Positions 5,216 to 39,323 of a stretch of DNA of 64,000 nt are shown piece by piece. The DNA is taken from contig CANQXY010000004.1 in the NCBI GenBank assembly GCA_947627935.1, positions 1,536 through 65,535 of the forward strand. Direction: 5' to 3'. The stretch is from an uncultured Clostridia bacterium (GTDB taxonomy: Bacteria > Bacillota > Clostridia > TANB77 > CAG-508). The notes under the pieces were generated by a model. It saw only the letters and a program-made list of their open reading frames with translations. It had not been told where the DNA came from and did no database searches. Position numbers and translations under genes: made by a program. Every line of letters begins with the position of its first letter. The stretch's first letter is position 1.

Positions 5216-6847
5216 TTATGCAGTTTTTTTATTTCTTAGTTCTAGAGCATATTTAATTGTAGTATCATTTACTTCTCCCGATGATATCCTAGCAATTTCA
5301 TTAATCACTTCATTTTCATTTAATAACTTAATCATCGTTTTTGTTCTTTCGTTTTCTATTTCTTTACTTATATAATAATTATAATCTGCAAAAGCTGCAA
5401 TTATTGGTAAATGTGAAATACATAAAACTTGATGATTATTAGAAATTATTTTTAATTTATCTGCTACACTACTTGCTGCTTTTCCACTAATTCCTGTATC
5501 TATTTCATCAAATATAAGTATTGGAGTATTATCTGTTTCAGATAATACTTTTTTTATTGCAAGCATTATTCTTGACATTTCTCCACCTGATGCAATCTTA
5601 TTTAATTCTTTTTCTTCTTCACCTAAATTTGTCAATATATAAAATTCAACTTTATCTTTACCATTTTCATAAAATTCATCTTGCTTATAATCTACTTTTA
5701 CATCAATTTTAGCATTTTTCATTTCCAAATCTTTAAGTTCTTTATTTACACTTTCACTTAATTTTTTAGCATAATTATTTCTTATCAAATTCATATTTTT
5801 TGATATTAAATTTAACTCTTTTACTAAAACATCTAATTCGTTTTTTAATTTATTATTATTTTCTTCTAAATTTTCAATATATTCTATTTCTTTTTCTATT
5901 TCTTCTTTATATTTTAAAATTTCTTCTATATTATTTCCATATTTTCTTTTTAGTGAAAATATTAAATCTAATCTTTCTTCTATTTTTTCTTGTTCTTCTT
6001 GATTAAAATATGTATCATCATTATAATCACTTATATCCCTTGATATCTCTTGTAATTCATAATATATATTTTTTAAACTACTTGTAACTTTTTCATATTT
6101 TTCATCAATTGTTTCAATTTTCTCTAATGCTCTTATTGCTTCGCTTAAACAATCTATGCTATTGTCACTAATTAATGTATTTGCTTTATTTAAGTTCTCA
6201 TATATTTTCTCAGAATTTAAAAATATTCTTCTTTTTTCCTCTAATTTACTTTCTTCATCTGGTTCCAATTTTGAAACTTCTATTTCATTTAGTTGATATT
6301 TTAATAAATCTAATTTTCTTTGTTTTTCTTTTTCATCCCCATAATTTTCTTTTAATTGTTTTTTTATCTCATTAAATCTATTAAATTTTAATTTATATTC
6401 ATCTAATAATTGTTTTAATTCTAATCCTATAAAATTATCTAAATATCTTAAATGTGTTTTTGATTCTAGTAAATCTTGATTTTCATTTTGTCCATGTATT
6501 TCTATAAAGTTAGACATAAATTGTTTTAATTCATTTACAGTAACTAATCTTCCATTTATTTTACATGAATTTCTTCCATTATCATAAATCTCTCTTGATA
6601 CTATAATGTTACCATCTACTGAATATGGACTTTTAGGATTATACATACATAATTCTACAAATGAATAATTTTCTCCTTTTCTTATCATATCTTTAGAAAA
6701 TCTTCCACCTGATATTATTTCTAAAGAATCTATTATTAATGTTTTCCCTGCTCCTGTTTCCCCTGTAAGCACATTAAATCCTTTATTTAATTCTATACTT
6801 AAATCATCTATTATTCCTATGTTTTTTATATGTAAATTTGTTATCAT
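5216..6847 (-). CDS. recN: DNA repair protein RecN
   Basis: 543 aa. It has Walker A GETGAGKT, a long coiled coil, and C-terminal SGGEMSRIMLAIK plus ILIFDEIDTGISG. Confidence 0.93.
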   Translation of the reverse strand: MITNLHIKNIGIIDDLSIELNKGFNVLTGETGAGKTLIIDSLEIISGGRFSKDMIRKGENYSFVELCMYNPKSPYSVDGNIIVSREIYDNGRNSCKINGRLVTVNELKQFMSNFIEIHGQNENQDLLESKTHLRYLDNFIGLELKQLLDEYKLKFNRFNEIKKQLKENYGDEKEKQRKLDLLKYQLNEIEVSKLEPDEESKLEEKRRIFLNSEKIYENLNKANTLISDNSIDCLSEAIRALEKIETIDEKYEKVTSSLKNIYYELQEISRDISDYNDDTYFNQEEQEKIEERLDLIFSLKRKYGNNIEEILKYKEEIEKEIEYIENLEENNNKLKNELDVLVKELNLISKNMNLIRNNYAKKLSESVNKELKDLEMKNAKIDVKVDYKQDEFYENGKDKVEFYILTNLGEEEKELNKIASGGEMSRIMLAIKKVLSETDNTPILIFDEIDTGISGKAASSVADKLKIISNNHQVLCISHLPIIAAFADYNYYISKEIENERTKTMIKLLNENEVINEIARISSGEVNDTTIKYALELRNKKTA

Positions 6848-17901: not shown

Positions 17902-19269
17902 TTATATAATTTCACCAATTAAGTCATAATTATCAATGTCAATTATTTTAATTTTAGTGAATGTATTTATTAGTTGATTTTCATCTGATTTGCTTGTATT
18001 TTTTATATAAACTATTCCATCTTCCATAGGTATATCTTGCATAGTTCTACCTATTAAATATTTACCATCAAAAGATATATTTTCAATAATTACTTCAAAA
18101 GTTTTTCCAATTTTGTCTTTTAAAATTCTATTTGATATTTCTTGTTGTTTTTTCATTATCTTATTATATCTAGATTTCTTTGTTAAATGATGTATTTGAT
18201 TTGGAAGTTTAGCAGCAGGTGTATTTTCTTCTTTTGAATACATAAAAGTACCTAATCTATCAATTTTTGTTTTACTAACAAAATTATATAATTCTTCAAA
18301 ATCTTCTTTAGTTTCACCTGGGAATCCAACTATTAAACTTGTCCTTATAACTATATCTGGAATTTCTTTTCTTATTTTATATATTAAATTTTCAATATCT
18401 TCTTTTGATGTTTTTCTATTCATCATTTTTAATATTTTGTTTGAAATATGTTGAATTGGTATATCAAAATATTTACAAATTTTTTTATTTGATTTTACAA
18501 CATTTATTAATTCATCTGTTATTCCTTCGGGATATGAATATAAAAATCTAATCCACTTTATACCTTCTATTTTACTTAAATTTTCTAATAGTTCTGCAAG
18601 TTTAGAAGTTCCATATATGTCTATACCATATTTAGTAGTATCTTGTGCAATTATTATTAATTCCCTTATTCCTTTTTTAGAAAGCATTTTTGCTTCTTCT
18701 AAAATATCTTCCATTTTTCTACTTACAAATGGCCCTCTTATATATGGTATTGCACAATATGTGCATTTATTACTGCAACCTTCTCCAATTTTTAAATAAG
18801 CATAATTCTTACCTGTTGTTATAGTTCTTTGTAAAAATTCTTCTTTTGTTGGAAGTGGTAATTTATTTATTTCAGATATCTTAGTTACTACTTTCTTTTT
18901 TGATTTATCTACTATGTTTTTATTTATTAATTTATCAATACTATCCCATAGCTTATTATATTCATCTAATTTTATAAACAAGTCTACTTCTGGCAATAGT
19001 TTTACTAAATCATTATAATATCTTTGTACTAAACATCCCATTACAATTAAATATTTACATTTTTTATTTTTATACTCGGCCATTTCTAATATTGTATTTA
19101 TTGCTTCTTCTTTAGCTTTATCTATAAATCCACAAGTATTAATAACTATAATATCCGCTTCTTCCGGATTATTTGTAATTACATATCCGTTGTTTTTAAA
19201 ATGTCCTATTGCAACTTCAGTATCAATTAAATTTTTGCTACATCCTAGTGATACAAATCCTACCTTCAT
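17902..19269 (-). CDS. rimO: Ribosomal protein S12 methylthiotransferase RimO (radical SAM MTTase)
   Basis: 455 aa with N-terminal MKVGFVSLGCSKNLIDTE, the radical-SAM motif CSNKCTYC, and a C-terminal TRAM-like region. Confidence 0.8.
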   Translation of the reverse strand: MKVGFVSLGCSKNLIDTEVAIGHFKNNGYVITNNPEEADIIVINTCGFIDKAKEEAINTILEMAEYKNKKCKYLIVMGCLVQRYYNDLVKLLPEVDLFIKLDEYNKLWDSIDKLINKNIVDKSKKKVVTKISEINKLPLPTKEEFLQRTITTGKNYAYLKIGEGCSNKCTYCAIPYIRGPFVSRKMEDILEEAKMLSKKGIRELIIIAQDTTKYGIDIYGTSKLAELLENLSKIEGIKWIRFLYSYPEGITDELINVVKSNKKICKYFDIPIQHISNKILKMMNRKTSKEDIENLIYKIRKEIPDIVIRTSLIVGFPGETKEDFEELYNFVSKTKIDRLGTFMYSKEENTPAAKLPNQIHHLTKKSRYNKIMKKQQEISNRILKDKIGKTFEVIIENISFDGKYLIGRTMQDIPMEDGIVYIKNTSKSDENQLINTFTKIKIIDIDNYDLIGEII

Positions 19270-32095: not shown

Positions 32096-34042
32096 TTAAA
32101 CTGTCTTAGGTTTTCTTCCTCTTCTCTTTTTTTCTTCTGCTCCTACTGTAACTGTTTCGTTTGATTTTCCCCAATATTTTTGAATAAATTTGTCAAATTC
32201 TTCTGCATCACTTTCATCCATATTGTTTCTCATTTCTCTAATATTTTTATCTGATATTTTATTTGTAATTACATATTCTCCATTTACATATTCTAAAATA
32301 TTTCTATATGTATATAATTGTCTTTCTGTTGTTTTTGTAAAATAATGTGTTGCATTATCAAAGAATTTATCAAATTTACCTTCTAAAGTTTTCTCTTTTC
32401 TATGATCAAAAGTATATTCATTTTTTTGTTCTACTGGAATACATTCTGTTACTCTTTCTATGTATCTTCTTCCTCTAAAGTCTTTAACTAAATGTATATC
32501 AAAATTTAATACTTGTACAACTTGTTCTTCTGCTGTTCTTTCATCTTTAAACACTCCTGCTCTTAACATTGAGTTACGAAGAGCTGTTACTAAATCTGGG
32601 AATGTTTTAGCATGGTGAGTAAATAATGTGAACTTTGATGCAACTTGTGCTGATTGTATCATCCAAGATGCAACAGGGTCTGTTGCAACCTCACCTATAA
32701 TGTTAACAGAACCATCTGTTTTCTTTTGAACGTCCAAACAATCTTGTCCTGAAACTGTTTCTGTTTCACGCATTGATAAAATATTTCTTGTTGGATATAT
32801 TTTTCTTAAGTGTAACTCAAATGCTGTTTCTGTAATACGAAGGTTCATTGTTTCATAAATGTTTTCTATCATTGCCATAAGCATTGTTGTTTTACCACAA
32901 CCTTGCTCACCAGTAAGTGATATAATTCTTGCACCTTTTACTAAGAATTTTAGTAAATTTATTGCATCTTCTTTTCCAGGGAATAATACTATTTGCTCTA
33001 ATGTAGCACGTTTAACGTCAAATTTTCTTACGAAAAATGCCCATGTTTCTGACATACTTGGTCTTACAACAACAACACGTGATCCATCTTTCATTTCATT
33101 TATTTTATAACCATTTGTATCTGATAATTGTCCTGGATTGTTATATTTATATATATTTTGACATACTCTCTTAAGTTCTGCTTCTGTTCCAAATGATAAA
33201 AATGCTAAACGTATTGATTTACCTTGGAACATTATCCAAATACTATCACATGCTCTAGGTACTTTATGTTCTGTTATTTGTTCTAAATAATCTCCATCTG
33301 TTTGTGACACTTGGCTTAAGAATGATTCTGGAAGTCCAGATACACCACCAGAAACACCATCTATGTTCATATCTCTTATTTCATCTATTGCACTATATCC
33401 TTTATAGTGTTGATATATTCTTTGTACTAATATACTTAATTTATCTTGAAATGATAATACTATATTTTCAGTTTCATATATCTCGTTTATTTCATCTTCT
33501 GTTATAACATATGATGGTTTTGTTTCACCTTCGACATATTTTAATGCTGCTAAATTATATTTTTTTATCATTTCTGTTAATGCTTCATAACCAAACTCTT
33601 TTTTATACATATATATTAATATGTCAAATTTATCTTGAGCAGTTAAAAGTGATGGAATATCAAATGGTATTGATTTTGAAATATTTACTTCATCTACTCC
33701 ATATTCTTGTTCTAATAAATCTGATATAAGTTCTTTAACATATTTTTTGTCATTTACATCTCCATATGTACAACCTTTTAATGCTTTCTTTAGTTCATAT
33801 TTTTTATTTTTTCTTCTTTTTAATTCTTCTTCTGAAAGTCCTATATCATATAAATTAACTTTTGTTATTTCATCTAATCTTTTTTTAACAAATTGTGTCA
33901 TCATTTGTAATGTATAAGTTTGATCATCTACTTCTACTGTTTCTTCTACAGGTGCTTCATTTTTATTTTTTATATATCTCATTACTGCAAATATAGCTAA
34001 ACATATAATTATTAACATTAATATAATATTAGTTATAGTCAT
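32096..34042 (-). CDS. CpaF/TadA-VirB11 family secretion ATPase with an unusual N-terminal TM anchor (648 aa)
   Basis: Walker A GEQGCGKTT; DGSRVVVVRP..AFFVRKF (CpaF-like); Walker B region GSVNIIGEV; His box FTHHAKT. The N-terminus MTITNIILMLIIICLAIFAV is hydrophobic. Confidence 0.7.
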   Translation of the reverse strand: MTITNIILMLIIICLAIFAVMRYIKNKNEAPVEETVEVDDQTYTLQMMTQFVKKRLDEITKVNLYDIGLSEEELKRRKNKKYELKKALKGCTYGDVNDKKYVKELISDLLEQEYGVDEVNISKSIPFDIPSLLTAQDKFDILIYMYKKEFGYEALTEMIKKYNLAALKYVEGETKPSYVITEDEINEIYETENIVLSFQDKLSILVQRIYQHYKGYSAIDEIRDMNIDGVSGGVSGLPESFLSQVSQTDGDYLEQITEHKVPRACDSIWIMFQGKSIRLAFLSFGTEAELKRVCQNIYKYNNPGQLSDTNGYKINEMKDGSRVVVVRPSMSETWAFFVRKFDVKRATLEQIVLFPGKEDAINLLKFLVKGARIISLTGEQGCGKTTMLMAMIENIYETMNLRITETAFELHLRKIYPTRNILSMRETETVSGQDCLDVQKKTDGSVNIIGEVATDPVASWMIQSAQVASKFTLFTHHAKTFPDLVTALRNSMLRAGVFKDERTAEEQVVQVLNFDIHLVKDFRGRRYIERVTECIPVEQKNEYTFDHRKEKTLEGKFDKFFDNATHYFTKTTERQLYTYRNILEYVNGEYVITNKISDKNIREMRNNMDESDAEEFDKFIQKYWGKSNETVTVGAEEKKRRGRKPKTV

Positions 34043-34056
34043 TTATTTTAGCCTCC

Positions 34057-34893
34057 TTATCTTCTTTGTTGTAATATTTGTAACCTATATAAAATGTTTT
34101 CAGATAATCTATTTACTTCACTTATAAAAAATGAATTTCTTTCATCTTCTATTTTTCTAAATTTTAAAAACAAATCTGCTACTTTTCCTTCCTCTGCTGC
34201 TTCAAAATATTGAGTGTTATATGGTAAAGTTAGAACTTGATTTCTTTCTCCTAAATATCTTGTTATATTTTTTGAAGTATATTTTGAAAATTTATCATAT
34301 CTTCCTATCAATAATAATACTTTAGGATCTTTAAATAATGGATTTTTTGTTTTTATATCAAGGAAATTGTTTATTGCTCTTAATCTTTGTGATAATGTTG
34401 CAACTACCAAATCTGACATTTTTATTATTTCATCTTGCAATGGTATTGGCATTACAGTTGCTAAATCTACAAATACAAAATCATAATATGTGTTTGCTAA
34501 TTCTATAATTTGTATATAACTTTCTGCTATTTGTTTATATTCACTTTCTTGTCCTTCAAATCCTAATAACAATTCTAATCTATCTTTGAATATTATTTTT
34601 GTATAATCTGTTATTAAATTTGCTGTAAATTTATTACTTCTTACAATTCTATCTAATCCTTCTATTCCACTTTGTATAGACGAATTAGCATTTTGTCCAA
34701 ATAATCCTATATTTTTTGTTGTTTTTTTATTTTGTTCAAAAAAACAATTTTCTATAGTTTCATCATTAAGACTTGTAGATATTAATAAAATCTTTTTATT
34801 ATGTTCTATTGCCATATGTGTTGCCACAGCGACAGCAGATAGTGTCTTTCCTACATGTTCTTTATTATTACCCCAAAATGTAACAATTGCCAT
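34057..34893 (-). CDS. ParA/MinD-family ATPase (TadZ/CpaE-like)
   Basis: 278 aa with a deviant Walker A, FWGNNKEHVGKT, and the Walker B-like YDFVFVDLA. Confidence 0.55.
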   Translation of the reverse strand: MAIVTFWGNNKEHVGKTLSAVAVATHMAIEHNKKILLISTSLNDETIENCFFEQNKKTTKNIGLFGQNANSSIQSGIEGLDRIVRSNKFTANLITDYTKIIFKDRLELLLGFEGQESEYKQIAESYIQIIELANTYYDFVFVDLATVMPIPLQDEIIKMSDLVVATLSQRLRAINNFLDIKTKNPLFKDPKVLLLIGRYDKFSKYTSKNITRYLGERNQVLTLPYNTQYFEAAEEGKVADLFLKFRKIEDERNSFFISEVNRLSENILYRLQILQQRR

Positions 34894-34897
34894 AGTC

Positions 34898-35593
34898 TTA
34901 TGCTCCTTTTTCTATAGTTTTTATAGCCTTTCTAATATCTGTATTTTTAACTTCTTTATAAATGCCTTCTACAATATAAGATAAATTTTCTTTATATGCA
35001 GAAGTTAATTTTTTGAATTTGATTTTTTCAACTCTCTGATTTTCTATAATAGCACTAAAATCTTCCATTGTTATAGTAAAATAAATTTTATATTCATTCC
35101 AACTTATATTGCAATCTTTAGATAGAAAATCTAAATATTGTTCTTCTTCTGGTAACATATTTTTTGAAAACAATATTTTTGTAACCTTGATTTGTTCTTC
35201 AAGTTCACTTAATACTTCTAATCCTTTTTTTAAATCATAAACATCAAAAGATGTAACAAAATAATTTATATCTGAATTTTCTAATTCAAATCTTTTAAAC
35301 ATATCATATGAATCAGTATCTACAAACACTATATCATATGATTGATTTAAGTCATCAATTCCTAAGTATTGTCTTAAATGTTCAAAGCTACTAAATCCTA
35401 TAGCTACATCTATATTTTCAAATTCTGTTACATAGTTTGCAGTTGGAGTTATAGCTGGCACTACATATTTGGCTTTTTGCTTTTGTGTACAATCTACTAT
35501 TAGAATTCTTTTACCTAAAACTGTTAAAATCTTTGCTACATATAACATAAGGTCAATTTTATCATAAGCTCCAATAAATCCTATTTTTTGCAT
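34898..35593 (-). CDS. Degenerate ParA/MinD-like protein lacking a P-loop
   Basis: 231 aa. It has the same fold signature (IGFIGAYDKIDL.., YDIVFVDTDS), but the GKT/GKS of Walker A is absent. Confidence 0.45.
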   Translation of the reverse strand: MQKIGFIGAYDKIDLMLYVAKILTVLGKRILIVDCTQKQKAKYVVPAITPTANYVTEFENIDVAIGFSSFEHLRQYLGIDDLNQSYDIVFVDTDSYDMFKRFELENSDINYFVTSFDVYDLKKGLEVLSELEEQIKVTKILFSKNMLPEEEQYLDFLSKDCNISWNEYKIYFTITMEDFSAIIENQRVEKIKFKKLTSAYKENLSYIVEGIYKEVKNTDIRKAIKTIEKGA

Positions 35594-35645
35594 AGTATTC
35601 TTCCTTTCTCCTCAGTATTAAGGGCATATAAATATGCCCTTAATA

Positions 35646-36551
35646 TTAATATCCTGCTAATGTATCTAAATATTGTTTTCTTGATTCTTGTGAATTTGCT
35701 GTACTATTTGATATTCCTTCTTCTACGTTTGTTTGAGCTTGTTCTGATCCGGCAATTGCAGGAGTTAAATGTTCATTTCTTAGCTGTGATAAATTATTTT
35801 GGCCATATCTTGCATTTAATGCATTCATAGCTTCTTTTAATATGTTTGGATCACTTTTTAATAATGCAACTACTTCTGCACTTACAGGATATGTAGGTGT
35901 AGCAGCTTTTTGCATTCCTGGGTCTGTATATTTTGTAGCATATATTTTTGATCCATTAATTTTAAATGCATCATAAATTGCATTTGAAATTGATAATATT
36001 TCATCTTCACTTAAATTAATTCTTATTGTGTCTGATGAAAGAGATCCTCCTAAATCTGGTATTTCAACTTTTTTCTTAGATACAACTATATAATTTTGTC
36101 CTGATGGAAGCATTAATCTAATATCAACATAATCTCCATCTTCTAAGTCTATTGGTAAGACTATCATATTATATTCTTCTATTCTTGTATCATCATTTAT
36201 TTTATTATCTGACTCAGTTATTAAATCTGATGTTATTATAGTATTTTTATTCATATCAACTTTTGCAATTACATTTTCTTCTCCAGTTAAGCTAATTGCA
36301 TTAGCTGGTACTGCATCAGAAGGAAGTGTTTTTGCAGTAATTGTACTTAAATCTACTGTTTCTCCAGATTTAACATCTTTATTTAATACATATACTGTTT
36401 TACTAGCCGCTTTTTCTTCTTGTTCTTTCTTTTTAATATTCATTAATTGTAAAAATAATAACGCTATTATTATACCTGTTATAACTAACGTTAATAACAT
36501 TCCTAACAAAAATGAATTTCTTGATTTTCTTTGCATTGGATTTGTTGCCAT
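35646..36551 (-). CDS. CpaB/RcpC-like pilus assembly protein
   Basis: 301 aa with an N-terminal TM, a SAF-like segment (LNKDVKSGETV) and a GDYVDIRL motif, as in CpaB. Strong AAGGGAGG RBS. Confidence 0.55.
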   Translation of the reverse strand: MATNPMQRKSRNSFLLGMLLTLVITGIIIALLFLQLMNIKKKEQEEKAASKTVYVLNKDVKSGETVDLSTITAKTLPSDAVPANAISLTGEENVIAKVDMNKNTIITSDLITESDNKINDDTRIEEYNMIVLPIDLEDGDYVDIRLMLPSGQNYIVVSKKKVEIPDLGGSLSSDTIRINLSEDEILSISNAIYDAFKINGSKIYATKYTDPGMQKAATPTYPVSAEVVALLKSDPNILKEAMNALNARYGQNNLSQLRNEHLTPAIAGSEQAQTNVEEGISNSTANSQESRKQYLDTLAGY

Positions 36552-36822: not shown

Positions 36823-37020
36823 ATGGCAAACACAAGTAACAGAAAATTAGTTCCAGAAGCTATGTCTGCATTAGACAAATTCAAATATGAAGTTGCTTCA
36901 GAAGTTGGTGTTAACTTAAAAGACGGATATAATGGTGACATTTCAGCTAAAGACGCTGGTAAAATAGGTGGACAAATGGTTAAAAAAATGATCGAACAAG
37001 CTGAAAGAAACATGAAATAG
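36823..37020 (+). CDS. Small acid-soluble spore protein, alpha/beta type
   Basis: 65 aa: MANTSNRKLVPEAMSALDKFKYEVASEVGV..GGQMVKKMIEQAE. AGGAGGTG RBS. Confidence 0.9.
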   Translation: MANTSNRKLVPEAMSALDKFKYEVASEVGVNLKDGYNGDISAKDAGKIGGQMVKKMIEQAERNMK

Positions 37021-37142
37021 TTATTACTATTTTAAAATTTGAATTCTATTTATAGACAGGAGGTTAAGTTTTGTTTTTATGAATACATAAAGGCAGGATT
37101 TGATTTCCTGCCTTTTCTTATTTTTAATTATGCTTCTGGTTC
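36908..37142 (+). repeat. Direct repeat copy 1 (235 bp): SASP 3' part, intergenic terminator and the last 15 nt of hpf
   Basis: Aligned base by base to 38576-38810 (offset 1668): 233/235 identical. Confidence 0.95.
37089..37117. terminator. Bidirectional terminator (duplicated at 38757-38785)
   Basis: AAAGGCAGGA-TTTGAT-TCCTGCCTTT with flanking A/T runs. Confidence 0.75.
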
Positions 37143-37313
37143 ATAAAATGTAATTTTTTAAATTAATTGTTGTAAATATTAAAAATAGTACAAACTCAAC
37201 AAGAGGAATTTTGTGAAACACTCTTTTTTTTGCATTATAATTTGTTTTGTAACTATTAATTAAGGATTATGCTTGCTACTTTCTTTATTTATTAGGGAAA
37301 ATCATTTTTCCCC

Positions 37314-38009
37314 CTAAATTTCTTGTACTATAAAGTTATTATAGTTTTGTAATTCTTTTTTTATTTCTTCCTTATTTTTTCCATTCCAATAATTATAGTT
37401 ATATATAACCTTATTATCTATTTTTATTACATTTGTTATTGTAGGTATTTGTTCATTTTCTATCTGTTTTAATTCTTCATACTTCTCTGTTGCTACTTTT
37501 TCAGTATATCCACCTACACAATATCTAGCACCTATACAAACATCATTTTCATCAAATGACATTATTATAGTAGCTTCTAATTTATCATCATTACTTTCTA
37601 TCAATAAATTTGTAACCTTAGAAATTGTTTTTCTATTTTCTTGTGTTATCCATTCTTTAAATGCTTCAAAATATTCAGGATTCCCATTTTCATCAACAGC
37701 AACTCCACCTATTGAAAGAAAAAAACTAATTATTAATGTTATTAATAAAATTGAAATTGATAAAACTATTCCTATTATTATTACATTTCTATGTTTTATT
37801 TTTTTTAGATAATCAATTTTTTTTAATTCATCTATTCTATCTAATACAATTTCTTTTCCCATATCTTTTAAAATATTTGTACACTCTTCACATTCTTTAA
37901 TATGATTTTCAATGTATTTGTTTGTTTCTTCACTTGTCAAGCCTTCTATATAGTTTGGTAATAAATCTTGTATTAATTTACACTCGTTGTTTTTTTTCAT
38001 TCTCATCAA
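37314..38009 (-). CDS. Anti-sigma factor (zf-HC2 type, single TM)
   Basis: 231 aa. The N-terminus CKLIQDLLPNYIEG..HIKECEEC fits zf-HC2. It has a TM at about residue 80 and overlaps the sigma gene's stop codon. Confidence 0.75.
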   Translation of the reverse strand: MMRMKKNNECKLIQDLLPNYIEGLTSEETNKYIENHIKECEECTNILKDMGKEIVLDRIDELKKIDYLKKIKHRNVIIIGIVLSISILLITLIISFFLSIGGVAVDENGNPEYFEAFKEWITQENRKTISKVTNLLIESNDDKLEATIIMSFDENDVCIGARYCVGGYTEKVATEKYEELKQIENEQIPTITNVIKIDNKVIYNYNYWNGKNKEEIKKELQNYNNFIVQEI

Positions 38010-38469
38010 CCTCCTTCATTTTTTGTTTTCCTCTATAAAAAGAAACTCTTGCCAAATTTTCACTTATTCCTAGGATTTCGCCTATTTCTTTAAATGTAAA
38101 TTCTCCTGTGATTTTTAAATAAAATATTTCTTGTGTTCTTGTATCCAATTTTTTTATTTTATTAATTAAATCTAATTTATCCGTGCAATTATTTTCTAAA
38201 CTTTCATAAGATACAATTTGTATCTCATCTAAATTTACTATGTTTATATTATGTGTTTTCTTTAATTCTTTAAGCCATAAATTTTTTGCAATTTGGCATA
38301 ACCAAACATATAATTTACACTCTCCTCTATATTGTTTGATATGTTTAAATGCTTGATAAAAAGTTTCTTGAGTTAAATCTTCTGACAAGGCATCATTATG
38401 AGTTAAGCAGAACAAATATTTATAAACCTGTTTTGAATATTCTTTATATATTTCTTCAATATTCTGCAT
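37978..38469 (-). CDS. RNA polymerase sigma-70 factor, ECF subfamily
   Basis: 163 aa with region 2 (DLTQETFYQAF) and the region 4 HTH (FTFKEIGEILGISENLARVSFYRGKQKM). Confidence 0.85.
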   Translation of the reverse strand: MQNIEEIYKEYSKQVYKYLFCLTHNDALSEDLTQETFYQAFKHIKQYRGECKLYVWLCQIAKNLWLKELKKTHNINIVNLDEIQIVSYESLENNCTDKLDLINKIKKLDTRTQEIFYLKITGEFTFKEIGEILGISENLARVSFYRGKQKMKEVDENEKKQRV

Positions 38470-38575
38470 TAATCAAAATCCTCCTTTCTTTTCTTATGTT
38501 ATAAGAGTATAAAAAAATTAAATTCGTTACAAATATTTTTATTATATAAAAAATAGTTGGTTAAATTAAAAGTGA

Positions 38576-38688
38576 GTGTTAACTTAAAAGACGGATATAA
38601 TGGTGACATTTCAGCTAAAGACGCTGGTAAAATAGGTGGACAAATGGTTAAAAAAATGATCGAACAAGCTGAAAGAAACATGAAATAG
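38576..38688 (+). pseudogene. 3' fragment of the SASP gene (no start, no promoter)
   Basis: Identical to 36908-37020. It begins mid-codon at the repeat boundary. Confidence 0.85.
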
Positions 38689-38810
38689 TTATTACTATTT
38701 TAAAATTTGAATTCTATTTATAGACAGGAAGTTAAGTTTTGTTTTTATGAATATATAAAGGCAGGATTTGATTTCCTGCCTTTTCTTATTTTTAATTATG
38801 CTTCTGGTTC
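38576..38810 (+). repeat. Direct repeat copy 2 (235 bp)
   Basis: See 36908-37142. Confidence 0.95.
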
Positions 38811-39323
38811 TACTAAACCATAATTTTTGCCATCTTTTAATTTATGTATTGCATTAACTTTACCTGTTTCAACATTTATAAATACTAAAAAATTATGTGT
38901 TGGTTTTTCTTGTAATTTTAACATTGCATCTTCTGGCATCATTGGTTTTAATTCATAATATGATGTTTTTATTATTTCATTTTCAATTTCAGGTATTTTT
39001 GTATCTACTATTTCCATATTTTTTATAGATGCATCTTTCATCATTTTTTCTTTTTTAGTTTTTGTTTTTCTTATTTGTCCTTCTAATATATCTATATCTT
39101 TATCTATAGATGCATATAAGTCTTTATCTTCTGTAACAGCCCTATATTTTTCTCCATTGGCTACAATAGAAATTTCTGCTATCTGTTCATTTTTTTCAGT
39201 TCTTAATGTAACCTCTGCATCAGCTTCTTCAAAATATTTATCTATTCTGTCTAATTTTCTTTCTACATAATCATTTATAGCTTCTGTTATCATTAGTTCC
39301 TTTCCTATTACTTTTATTTTCAT
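38796..39323 (-). CDS. hpf: Ribosome hibernation promoting factor (long HPF)
   Basis: An N-terminal YfiA/S30AE domain (MKIKVIGKELMITEAI..) plus a C-terminal dimerisation domain. The ATG at 39323 follows GGGAG. Confidence 0.88.
   Translation of the reverse strand: MKIKVIGKELMITEAINDYVERKLDRIDKYFEEADAEVTLRTEKNEQIAEISIVANGEKYRAVTEDKDLYASIDKDIDILEGQIRKTKTKKEKMMKDASIKNMEIVDTKIPEIENEIIKTSYYELKPMMPEDAMLKLQEKPTHNFLVFINVETGKVNAIHKLKDGKNYGLVEPEA

Follow-up and report, generated by a model that had tools for sequence, protein, structure and literature searches.

The window analysed in this study, a 64,000-nt stretch of the genome of an uncultured Clostridia bacterium (GCA_947627935.1, contig CANQXY010000004.1, positions 1,536 to 65,535 of the forward strand), carries an operon for an extracytoplasmic function (ECF) sigma factor and its anti-sigma factor between two copies of a 235-bp direct repeat, at the site where the genes ssp and hpf converge. 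With a probability of roughly 0.7, we interpret this structure as a real, old and apparently fixed insertion of the operon, which would have arisen by one recombination event with a host-made join and would later have been shaped by gene conversion. Hereafter, the 235-bp repeat is designated R and the unique 1433-bp insert between its copies X (37143-38575, operon on the minus strand). The host is one species of the uncultured gut order TANB77, and the source genome (G000) is a 1.30-Mb metagenome-assembled genome (MAG) of 48 contigs, assembled with k = 77 and 97.5% complete. Contigs of the same species were obtained by exact-protein look-ups from seven ENA samples besides the source, giving eight samples of the species in all, which fall into two lineages ca. 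5% apart; the genus was surveyed in 200 sampled genomes.

The two copies of R, at 36908-37142 (left) and 38576-38810 (right), are identical at 233 of 235 positions with an offset of 1668 nt, the mismatches lying at 37062 (G/A) and 37086 (C/T), and the 1.30-Mb genome contains exactly these two copies. Each consists of the last 113 nt of ssp, a 107-nt intergenic segment that contains a strong terminator hairpin, and the 15 nt that end hpf (GAACCAGAAGCATAA, minus strand). The left copy completes ssp (36823-37020, plus strand), which encodes an alpha/beta-type small acid-soluble spore protein (SASP) of 65 aa (PF00269, E = 7e-30) and has its last 113 nt in R. The right copy completes hpf (38796-39323, minus strand), which encodes a long HPF of 175 aa (PF02482 and PF16321; TIGR00741 above its cut-off) and has its last 15 nt in R. 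Both genes are thus intact, and what is left over is a promoterless 113-nt 3' fragment of ssp in the right copy (38576-38688, plus strand) and an orphan 15-nt 3' fragment of hpf, EPEA-stop, in the left copy (37128-37142, minus strand). The initial annotation of this region had described the near-identical repeats with these gene ends, the completion of the SASP gene on the left and of hpf on the right, and the ECF sigma and zf-HC2 anti-sigma genes without a recombinase in between; all of these points were confirmed, the second by the gene anatomy. The boundaries of R are sharp, similarity being at background directly beyond both ends. In gapped local alignments of the adjoining sequence, in which the ends of X were compared with hpf and ssp, the scores were no better than those of shuffles (z = -0.6 and 0.7). 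A formerly longer duplication of which R would be the surviving core was therefore rejected.

In at least seven sister species (L004-L009 and L014) and in a further species (L020), ssp and hpf are contiguous through a single copy of R. Since ssp-R-hpf runs uninterrupted in the sister species, the empty state is ancestral and the filled site is the derived state, an insertion with duplication of its target. X was not seen at the ssp/hpf site in any other species among the 200 genus genomes. A (tandem) duplication followed by replacement, which the initial annotation had offered as leaving the same footprint, did not hold up: X is present only once, and in no relative does it belong to this neighbourhood.

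Both novel junctions recurred in the seven other ENA samples, in both lineages. Two contigs of 14.8 kb (L018) and 8.9 kb (L019), ca. 95% identical to the window over 8 kb, span the whole order ssp-R-antisigma-sigma-R-hpf-recO-era, and their junctions are identical to those of the window. Shorter contigs show hpf-R-X (L048 and L049) or ssp-R-X (L021). A further one, 99.9% identical (L015), runs through recO-hpf-R-X and ends 55 nt into the left R, and another (L016) comprises X flanked by 55 nt of R on one side and 49 nt on the other, a typical graph break at k = 55. Besides the window, the link hpf-R-X was found in five samples and ssp-R-X in three, and the exact SASP sequence is encoded on four other contigs. 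Identical junctions in seven independent assemblies mean that the structure is not an artefact of this one assembly, which had been named at the outset as an outcome that would overturn the interpretation. The contigs of the second lineage are, moreover, phased, the left R edge being distinguishable.

No empty allele (ssp-R-hpf) was found within the species; every informative conspecific contig, from the seven other samples and two lineages, was filled. Two scans of JGI metagenomes, one with an empty-site pattern and one with the X/R junction, gave no matches, and are uninformative because that collection does not contain this species. The structure has been stable through ca. 5% divergence. 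The operon is apparently an old, fixed insertion and not an active gain/loss module, as had been suggested for it. Comparison with relatives, proposed in the initial annotation, thus gave a divided answer: the empty site does exist in at least seven sister species, whereas the conspecific contigs are all filled, with one R edge decayed and the cores alike.

Sequence divergence within the species bears on the age of the insertion. Between the two lineages, identity was 87% in the non-coding tail of X (171 nt, 37143-37313), the fastest-evolving segment and one without relatives elsewhere, 92.7% in the neighbouring pilus genes, 96.8% in era, 97.1% in recO, 98.4% in hpf, 98.5% in the anti-sigma gene and 99.1% in the sigma gene. 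Since X has diverged along with its flanks, the insertion is older than the split between the lineages. The 113-nt ssp fragment in the right R shows no differences between lineages and, in all genomes examined, none from the functional copy, whereas ca. 15 differences were expected at the rate of the X tail, which was taken as neutral. In the intergenic part of R, each lineage has its own state at two positions and has it in both copies; the substitutions of lineage 2 were seen in three left and four right copies. The R cores thus evolve in concert, a pattern that implies gene conversion between the copies. The last ca. 25 nt of the left R, containing the hpf stub, carry five changes including one deletion in lineage 2 (L018, L019 and L021), which shows erosion of one repeat edge in one lineage. 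Since concerted evolution means that recombination between the copies occurs, rare excision is possible.

Several observations weigh against this interpretation. All conspecific assemblies consist of short-read SPAdes contigs at ca. 3x coverage, and bulge collapse at such low coverage could overstate the likeness of the R copies; the right R of L015, for example, carries the left-type alleles of the window. The consistency across seven copies nevertheless argues against bulge collapse as the whole explanation. In addition, rare empty alleles or excised circles would be missed with only eight samples. A donor locus that holds X with its outer ends, 112 nt on the left (37143-37254) and 28 nt on the right (38548-38575), was not found: these ends had no match elsewhere, including the 200 genus genomes, in which a search for the origin of the tail (37143-37300) gave only A+T-rich noise. 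Since there is no donor of X, its junctions are not assignable to homologous, site-specific or illegitimate joining, and the type of event is inferred.

The operon in X has its own promoter and its own hairpin. The sigma gene (37978-38469, minus strand) encodes 163 aa with PF04542 (Sigma70_r2) and PF08281 (r4_2), and overlaps the start of the anti-sigma gene (37314-38000, minus strand; 228 aa) by 23 nt. The anti-sigma factor consists of an N-terminal zf-HC2 domain (PF13490, E = 1.7e-7), one hydrophobic segment and an extracytoplasmic domain of ca. 130 aa that belongs to no known family; it had no match in NCBIfam, and its family is small (25 clusters). A hairpin (37293-37316) lies directly after its stop codon. 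With only regions 2 and 4 in the sigma factor and the zinc-binding domain in the overlapping downstream gene, the pair has the makeup of an ECF (group 4) sigma factor with a class I anti-sigma factor. The sigma factor exceeded the TIGR02937 cut-off (75 bits against 42.9) and was closest to the SigM subfamily, yet below its cut-offs (106 against 148 bits for TIGR02950 and 90 against 199 bits for NF007226), and assignment as a SigM equivalog was rejected on these scores. Upstream lies a putative autoregulated ECF promoter, TGTAAC-N17-ACTCTTA (38502-38531, minus strand), whose motif forms invariant columns in the alignment of orthologous cassettes. In a strict search of the genome with this motif for a regulon, only the promoter of the operon itself matched. 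There was no other credible open reading frame and no recombinase in the 1433 bp, no terminal inverted repeats were found in X, and an Rfam scan of the region gave no match. The operon is self-contained and probably autoregulated. By analogy with its family, the zinc-finger domain of the membrane-bound anti-sigma factor would hold the sigma factor until an envelope signal arrives, and the released sigma factor would then drive its own TGTAAC-N17-ACTC promoter.

Pairs of the SigM, SigX and SigW types with zf-HC2 anti-sigma factors, as known from Firmicutes, likewise have sigma-2 and sigma-4 domains, an overlapping downstream gene for a zf-HC2 membrane anti-sigma factor and an upstream -35 motif that contains AAC. 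Unlike these types, the present pair falls below every equivalog cut-off, has a sensor domain without known family, and is patchily distributed in the genus, where full-length orthologues occur in two of 200 genomes at unrelated loci. These two genomes, G095 and G201, were the only ones with full-length orthologues of the anti-sigma factor; in one the cassette lies by gyrA, and in the other by a DNA polymerase III alpha-like gene. Flanking repeats were looked for around both cassettes and none were found. Orthologues on metagenome contigs (L034-L038) were 76-83% identical at the DNA level and had differing flanks. In every case, the homology of the orthologous cassettes to X spans only the part from promoter to hairpin, which supports a self-contained operon. 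A scan of GTDB genome contigs with the anti-sigma protein yielded only a distant Ruminococcus paralogue, and in the source genome the paralogues of X are 66-69% identical, with no source copy of X there.

The cassette of G095 (L071, G095:C2:176000-195900, 10752-18556) has gyrA on one side and a block of conjugative-element genes on the other; the block comprises genes for DnaC/IstB-like and DnaD-like proteins, an AbiEii toxin, a type IV secretion system pilin and a type IV secretion system coupling protein. Given this context, an integrative and conjugative element (ICE) may carry the cassette along as cargo at its edge.

The surroundings of the insertion have some features of their own. The intrinsic terminator in the left R (37089-37115, plus strand), with a 10-bp stem and a T tract, is read as the ssp terminator; its counterpart in the right R (38757-38783, plus strand) stands between hpf and the sigma promoter. 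Two terminator-like sites were found against 0.4 expected, and the hairpin is invariant across all relatives compared. The C-terminal half of the SASP would also be encoded by a 43-aa frame at 38557-38688 (plus strand), whose TTG start lies within the end of X; this frame is probably unexpressed, as no ribosome-binding site was seen. To the left of ssp, Tad-like pilus genes (32823-36551, compared with L018) are 92.7% identical between the lineages against 97-99% for the housekeeping genes to the right, and are fast-evolving or exchanged. To the right, recO and era come after hpf.

The 3' flank of hpf is variable within the genus. In G001, one copy of a G+C-rich repeat resembling a miniature inverted-repeat transposable element lies directly after the hpf stop codon. 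This repeat has ca. 42 copies in G001 (L010 1-84, G001:C95, and at least 41 other places), its ends (ca. 50-78 nt) form inverted pairs with a spacing of 310-420 bp, and it is absent from G000, G013 and G018. The contigs of G001 and G013 break at the 3' end of hpf.

According to the interpretation that we favour, one recombination event would have placed X between two copies of a 235-bp target stretch in the convergent ssp/hpf terminator region. Since the cassette has no mobility function, the join would have been made by host recombination. RecA, ComEC and DprA are present in the genome, and Ku was not found in this 97.5%-complete assembly; homologous recombination and DNA uptake are thus plausible, and Ku-dependent end joining is not. 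Routes with the same topology would be integration of R+X as a circle by one crossover, an unequal exchange in which an occupied chromosome recombines with an empty one (a 'patch' that is homologous on one side and illegitimate on the other), or a template switch. Afterwards, gene conversion of the RecA type has held the R cores alike, and erosion of the useless hpf stub has set in. The murA footprint described below is a precedent in this genome. The footprint at ssp/hpf shows X between two target copies, and for its origin several routes are equivalent. Integration of a 1668-bp circle by a Campbell-type single crossover, as proposed in the initial annotation, therefore fits the topology, but is not singled out from an unequal exchange or a template switch.

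Campbell (insertion-duplication) integration of non-replicating circular DNA is used in the laboratory for suicide vectors. The present structure shares with it direct repeats equal to the homologous segment, each of which completes one flanking gene, as well as independence from an element-encoded recombinase and the potential for reversal by recombination between the repeats. As expected for such a footprint, R is one contiguous single-copy segment of the empty site in the seven sister species and L020; empty alleles in the same population, as expected from reversibility, were not seen in the small sample of seven other samples. Unlike the laboratory cases, the present one is natural, occurs in an uncultured gut bacterium and has neither vector nor replicon, and the circle is hypothetical here; the insert is also stable through ca. 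5% divergence, and two illegitimate joins are left unaccounted for. A second comparison is with merodiploids, which rescue interrupted essential genes by unequal crossing-over in natural transformation (Johnston et al. 2013, PMC3784515), and with homology-facilitated illegitimate recombination. In these as in the present case, an intact copy is kept next to an interrupted or partial one, and host homologous recombination and exchange between chromatids come into play. The merodiploid duplications measure 100-900 kb and lie between insertion sequence (IS) repeats (PMC3784515), whereas here 235 bp border a 1.4-kb foreign operon.

A third comparison is with the gene-intervening elements of spore formers, i.e., skin, SPbeta in spsM, gin in gerE and yin in yabG (PMC4191935, PMC5595907, PMC10747680). 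The sporulation-related context, an ssp gene in a spore former, is shared, and a sister footprint at murA, described below, derives from a serine-recombinase intervening element. Unlike these elements, the ssp/hpf cassette interrupts no gene, has no recombinase, and is bordered by 235-bp repeats instead of a short att core. A skin-like intervening element was rejected for the cassette because ssp and hpf are both intact and a recombinase is lacking. A transposon or IS was rejected as well, with no transposase, no terminal inverted repeats and a duplication of 235 bp against the 2-15 bp expected, and so was an integron cassette, since X has its own promoter and no attC.

Whole-genome self-comparison revealed that the source genome has at least one further repeat-insert-repeat footprint, a clear case at murA, and probably a second. 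At murA, a 435-bp direct repeat with 98.6% identity (G000:C15:11254-11687 and 13942-14375; L055 1755-2188 and 4443-4876) comprises 72 nt of upstream sequence and ca. the first 360 nt of murA, and flanks 2.25 kb with two genes of no known family (383 aa and 147 aa). At one repeat copy murA is intact, and at the other it is reduced to a 118-aa stub; identical stub and insert are present on two conspecific contigs (L073 and L074). In a sister species, G007, the orthologous murA is split at the equivalent point by a 17.5-kb element (L064, G007:C7:32800-52700), with the 5' part at 548-1040 and the 3' part at 18601-19482 of L064 and an overlap of ca. 20 nt between the fragments. The genes of this element all have the same orientation, and the one for a large serine recombinase (PF00239 and PF07508; 16924-17712) adjoins the junction. 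With an interrupted frame and a recombinase by the junction, as in skin, it resembles the gene-intervening elements of the skin type, here within a murA paralogue, and to our knowledge there is no description of such a case. The breakpoint in murA is common to five more species (G013, G001, G002, G003 and G008), and the edge of the murA insert of G000 is homologous to the end of the 17.5-kb element. These sequences would be explained most simply by a single unequal exchange, in which an occupied copy of the locus recombined with an unoccupied one, so that murA became whole again and part of the element stayed behind. The rescue of interrupted essential genes in merodiploids (PMC3784515) is a parallel.

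The second candidate, on contig C27, is a 183-bp direct repeat with 95.6% identity (G000:C27:1674-1855 and 5442-5623; L056) that spans the 5' end of spoIIID. Between its copies lie 3.6 kb with two tandem gene pairs, each of a bAvd-like gene (PF22296) and a gene for a protein of ca. 350 aa with a weak match to the FGE-sulfatase fold. The pairs resemble target genes and accessory genes as found in a diversity-generating retroelement (DGR), and no reverse transcriptase was seen near them. A 108-bp direct repeat on contig C29 (G000:C29:801-907 and 2060-2166; 91% identical, copies 1.15 kb apart) adjoins a tyrosine-integrase fragment with an internal TGA (C29:2255-2410), and probably represents the remains of an integrative element.

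The murA footprint provides the model for the alternative that survives best, which is possible even though we think it improbable on balance. In this account, X is the remnant of a larger element, such as an ICE, a prophage or an intervening element, that sat at one junction and disrupted ssp or clipped hpf, until both genes were restored by a single exchange, unequal or illegitimate, with an unoccupied copy of the locus. Such an exchange would delete most of the element and create the duplication, a history that is visible at murA, where the insert edge is homologous to the end of the serine-recombinase element of G007. The orthologous cassette of G095 abuts conjugative-element genes, and the variation of the hpf 3' flank in the genus also fits. 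However, no relative carries an element at the ssp or hpf junction, and the outer ends of X match nothing in the 200 genus genomes. Since no such relative is at hand, this account, an analogy with murA, stays a rival and is not preferred.

It is rather unlikely that the structure arose by a replicative template switch (of the fork stalling and template switching or microhomology-mediated break-induced replication kind) or that a staggered break at the convergent terminator was filled in. In a template switch, the nascent strand would leave 15 nt into hpf, copy X and re-anneal 235 nt back, so that one event explains both duplication and insertion; moreover, transcription converges at this site, which contains a hairpin. 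There is weak similarity outside the R ends (5 of 8 nt on the left, and 12 of 16 nt with a 2-nt gap on the right), but in DNA with 75% A+T it is not above background. The failure to find Ku argues against capture by end joining, and no source copy of X is left in the genome, the paralogues being only 66-69% identical.

We consider doubtful the proposal that a 1668-bp circle of R and X integrated by a single crossover and that the cassette is still an active gain/loss module through its repeats. The topology fits exactly, the genome has RecA and DNA-uptake genes, recA-dependent single-crossover integration of circularised incoming DNA is on record (PMC3240628), and gene conversion shows that the R copies interact. 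On the other hand, the informative conspecific contigs from seven other samples and two lineages include no empty site, the structure has persisted through ca. 5% divergence, X occupies this site in no other species among the 200 genus genomes, and the first circle would itself still require two illegitimate joins.

Very little speaks for a cis-mobilisable element (CIME-like) whose repeats are attL and attR for an integrase encoded elsewhere, and we regard it as highly improbable. The genome does have three large serine recombinases (contig C9) as well as tyrosine recombinases, and elements that insert into gene ends often bring a replacement end. There is, however, no integrase in X or near the cassette, the cassette was not seen at this site in other species, and the other footprints in the genome have unrelated repeat sequences. 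The recombinases lie elsewhere in the genome, and no related att site was identified. An assembly artefact, i.e., a chimeric or expanded repeat, can practically be dismissed: in a 48-contig MAG built with k = 77, the arrangement A-R-X-R-B has the same de Bruijn graph as A-R-B plus a circle, but both novel junctions are present in seven independent samples, contigs of 8.9 and 14.8 kb from a lineage 5% diverged cross the whole structure with a distinguishable left R edge, and a 1.7-kb circle that lacks a replication gene could not be maintained by itself.

The insertion of the ECF operon between ssp and hpf is a clean natural case in which genes were gained by insertion, with a long duplication of the target and no recombinase encoded by the element. 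Population snapshots show the footprint as stable and held alike by gene conversion; taken alone, this is a modest point about genome evolution. Tentatively, and with the odds against it, the footprints may reflect a process that recurs in this lineage, in which an element lands in or beside an important gene, a single unequal exchange with an unoccupied copy restores the gene through a duplication measuring a few hundred bp, and the remnant stays as domesticated cargo, i.e., the ECF operon at ssp/hpf, the two genes of no known family at murA and perhaps the DGR-like genes at spoIIID. If such recurrent footprints prove general, small genomes would repair genes disrupted by elements and retain fragments of these elements as new regulators.

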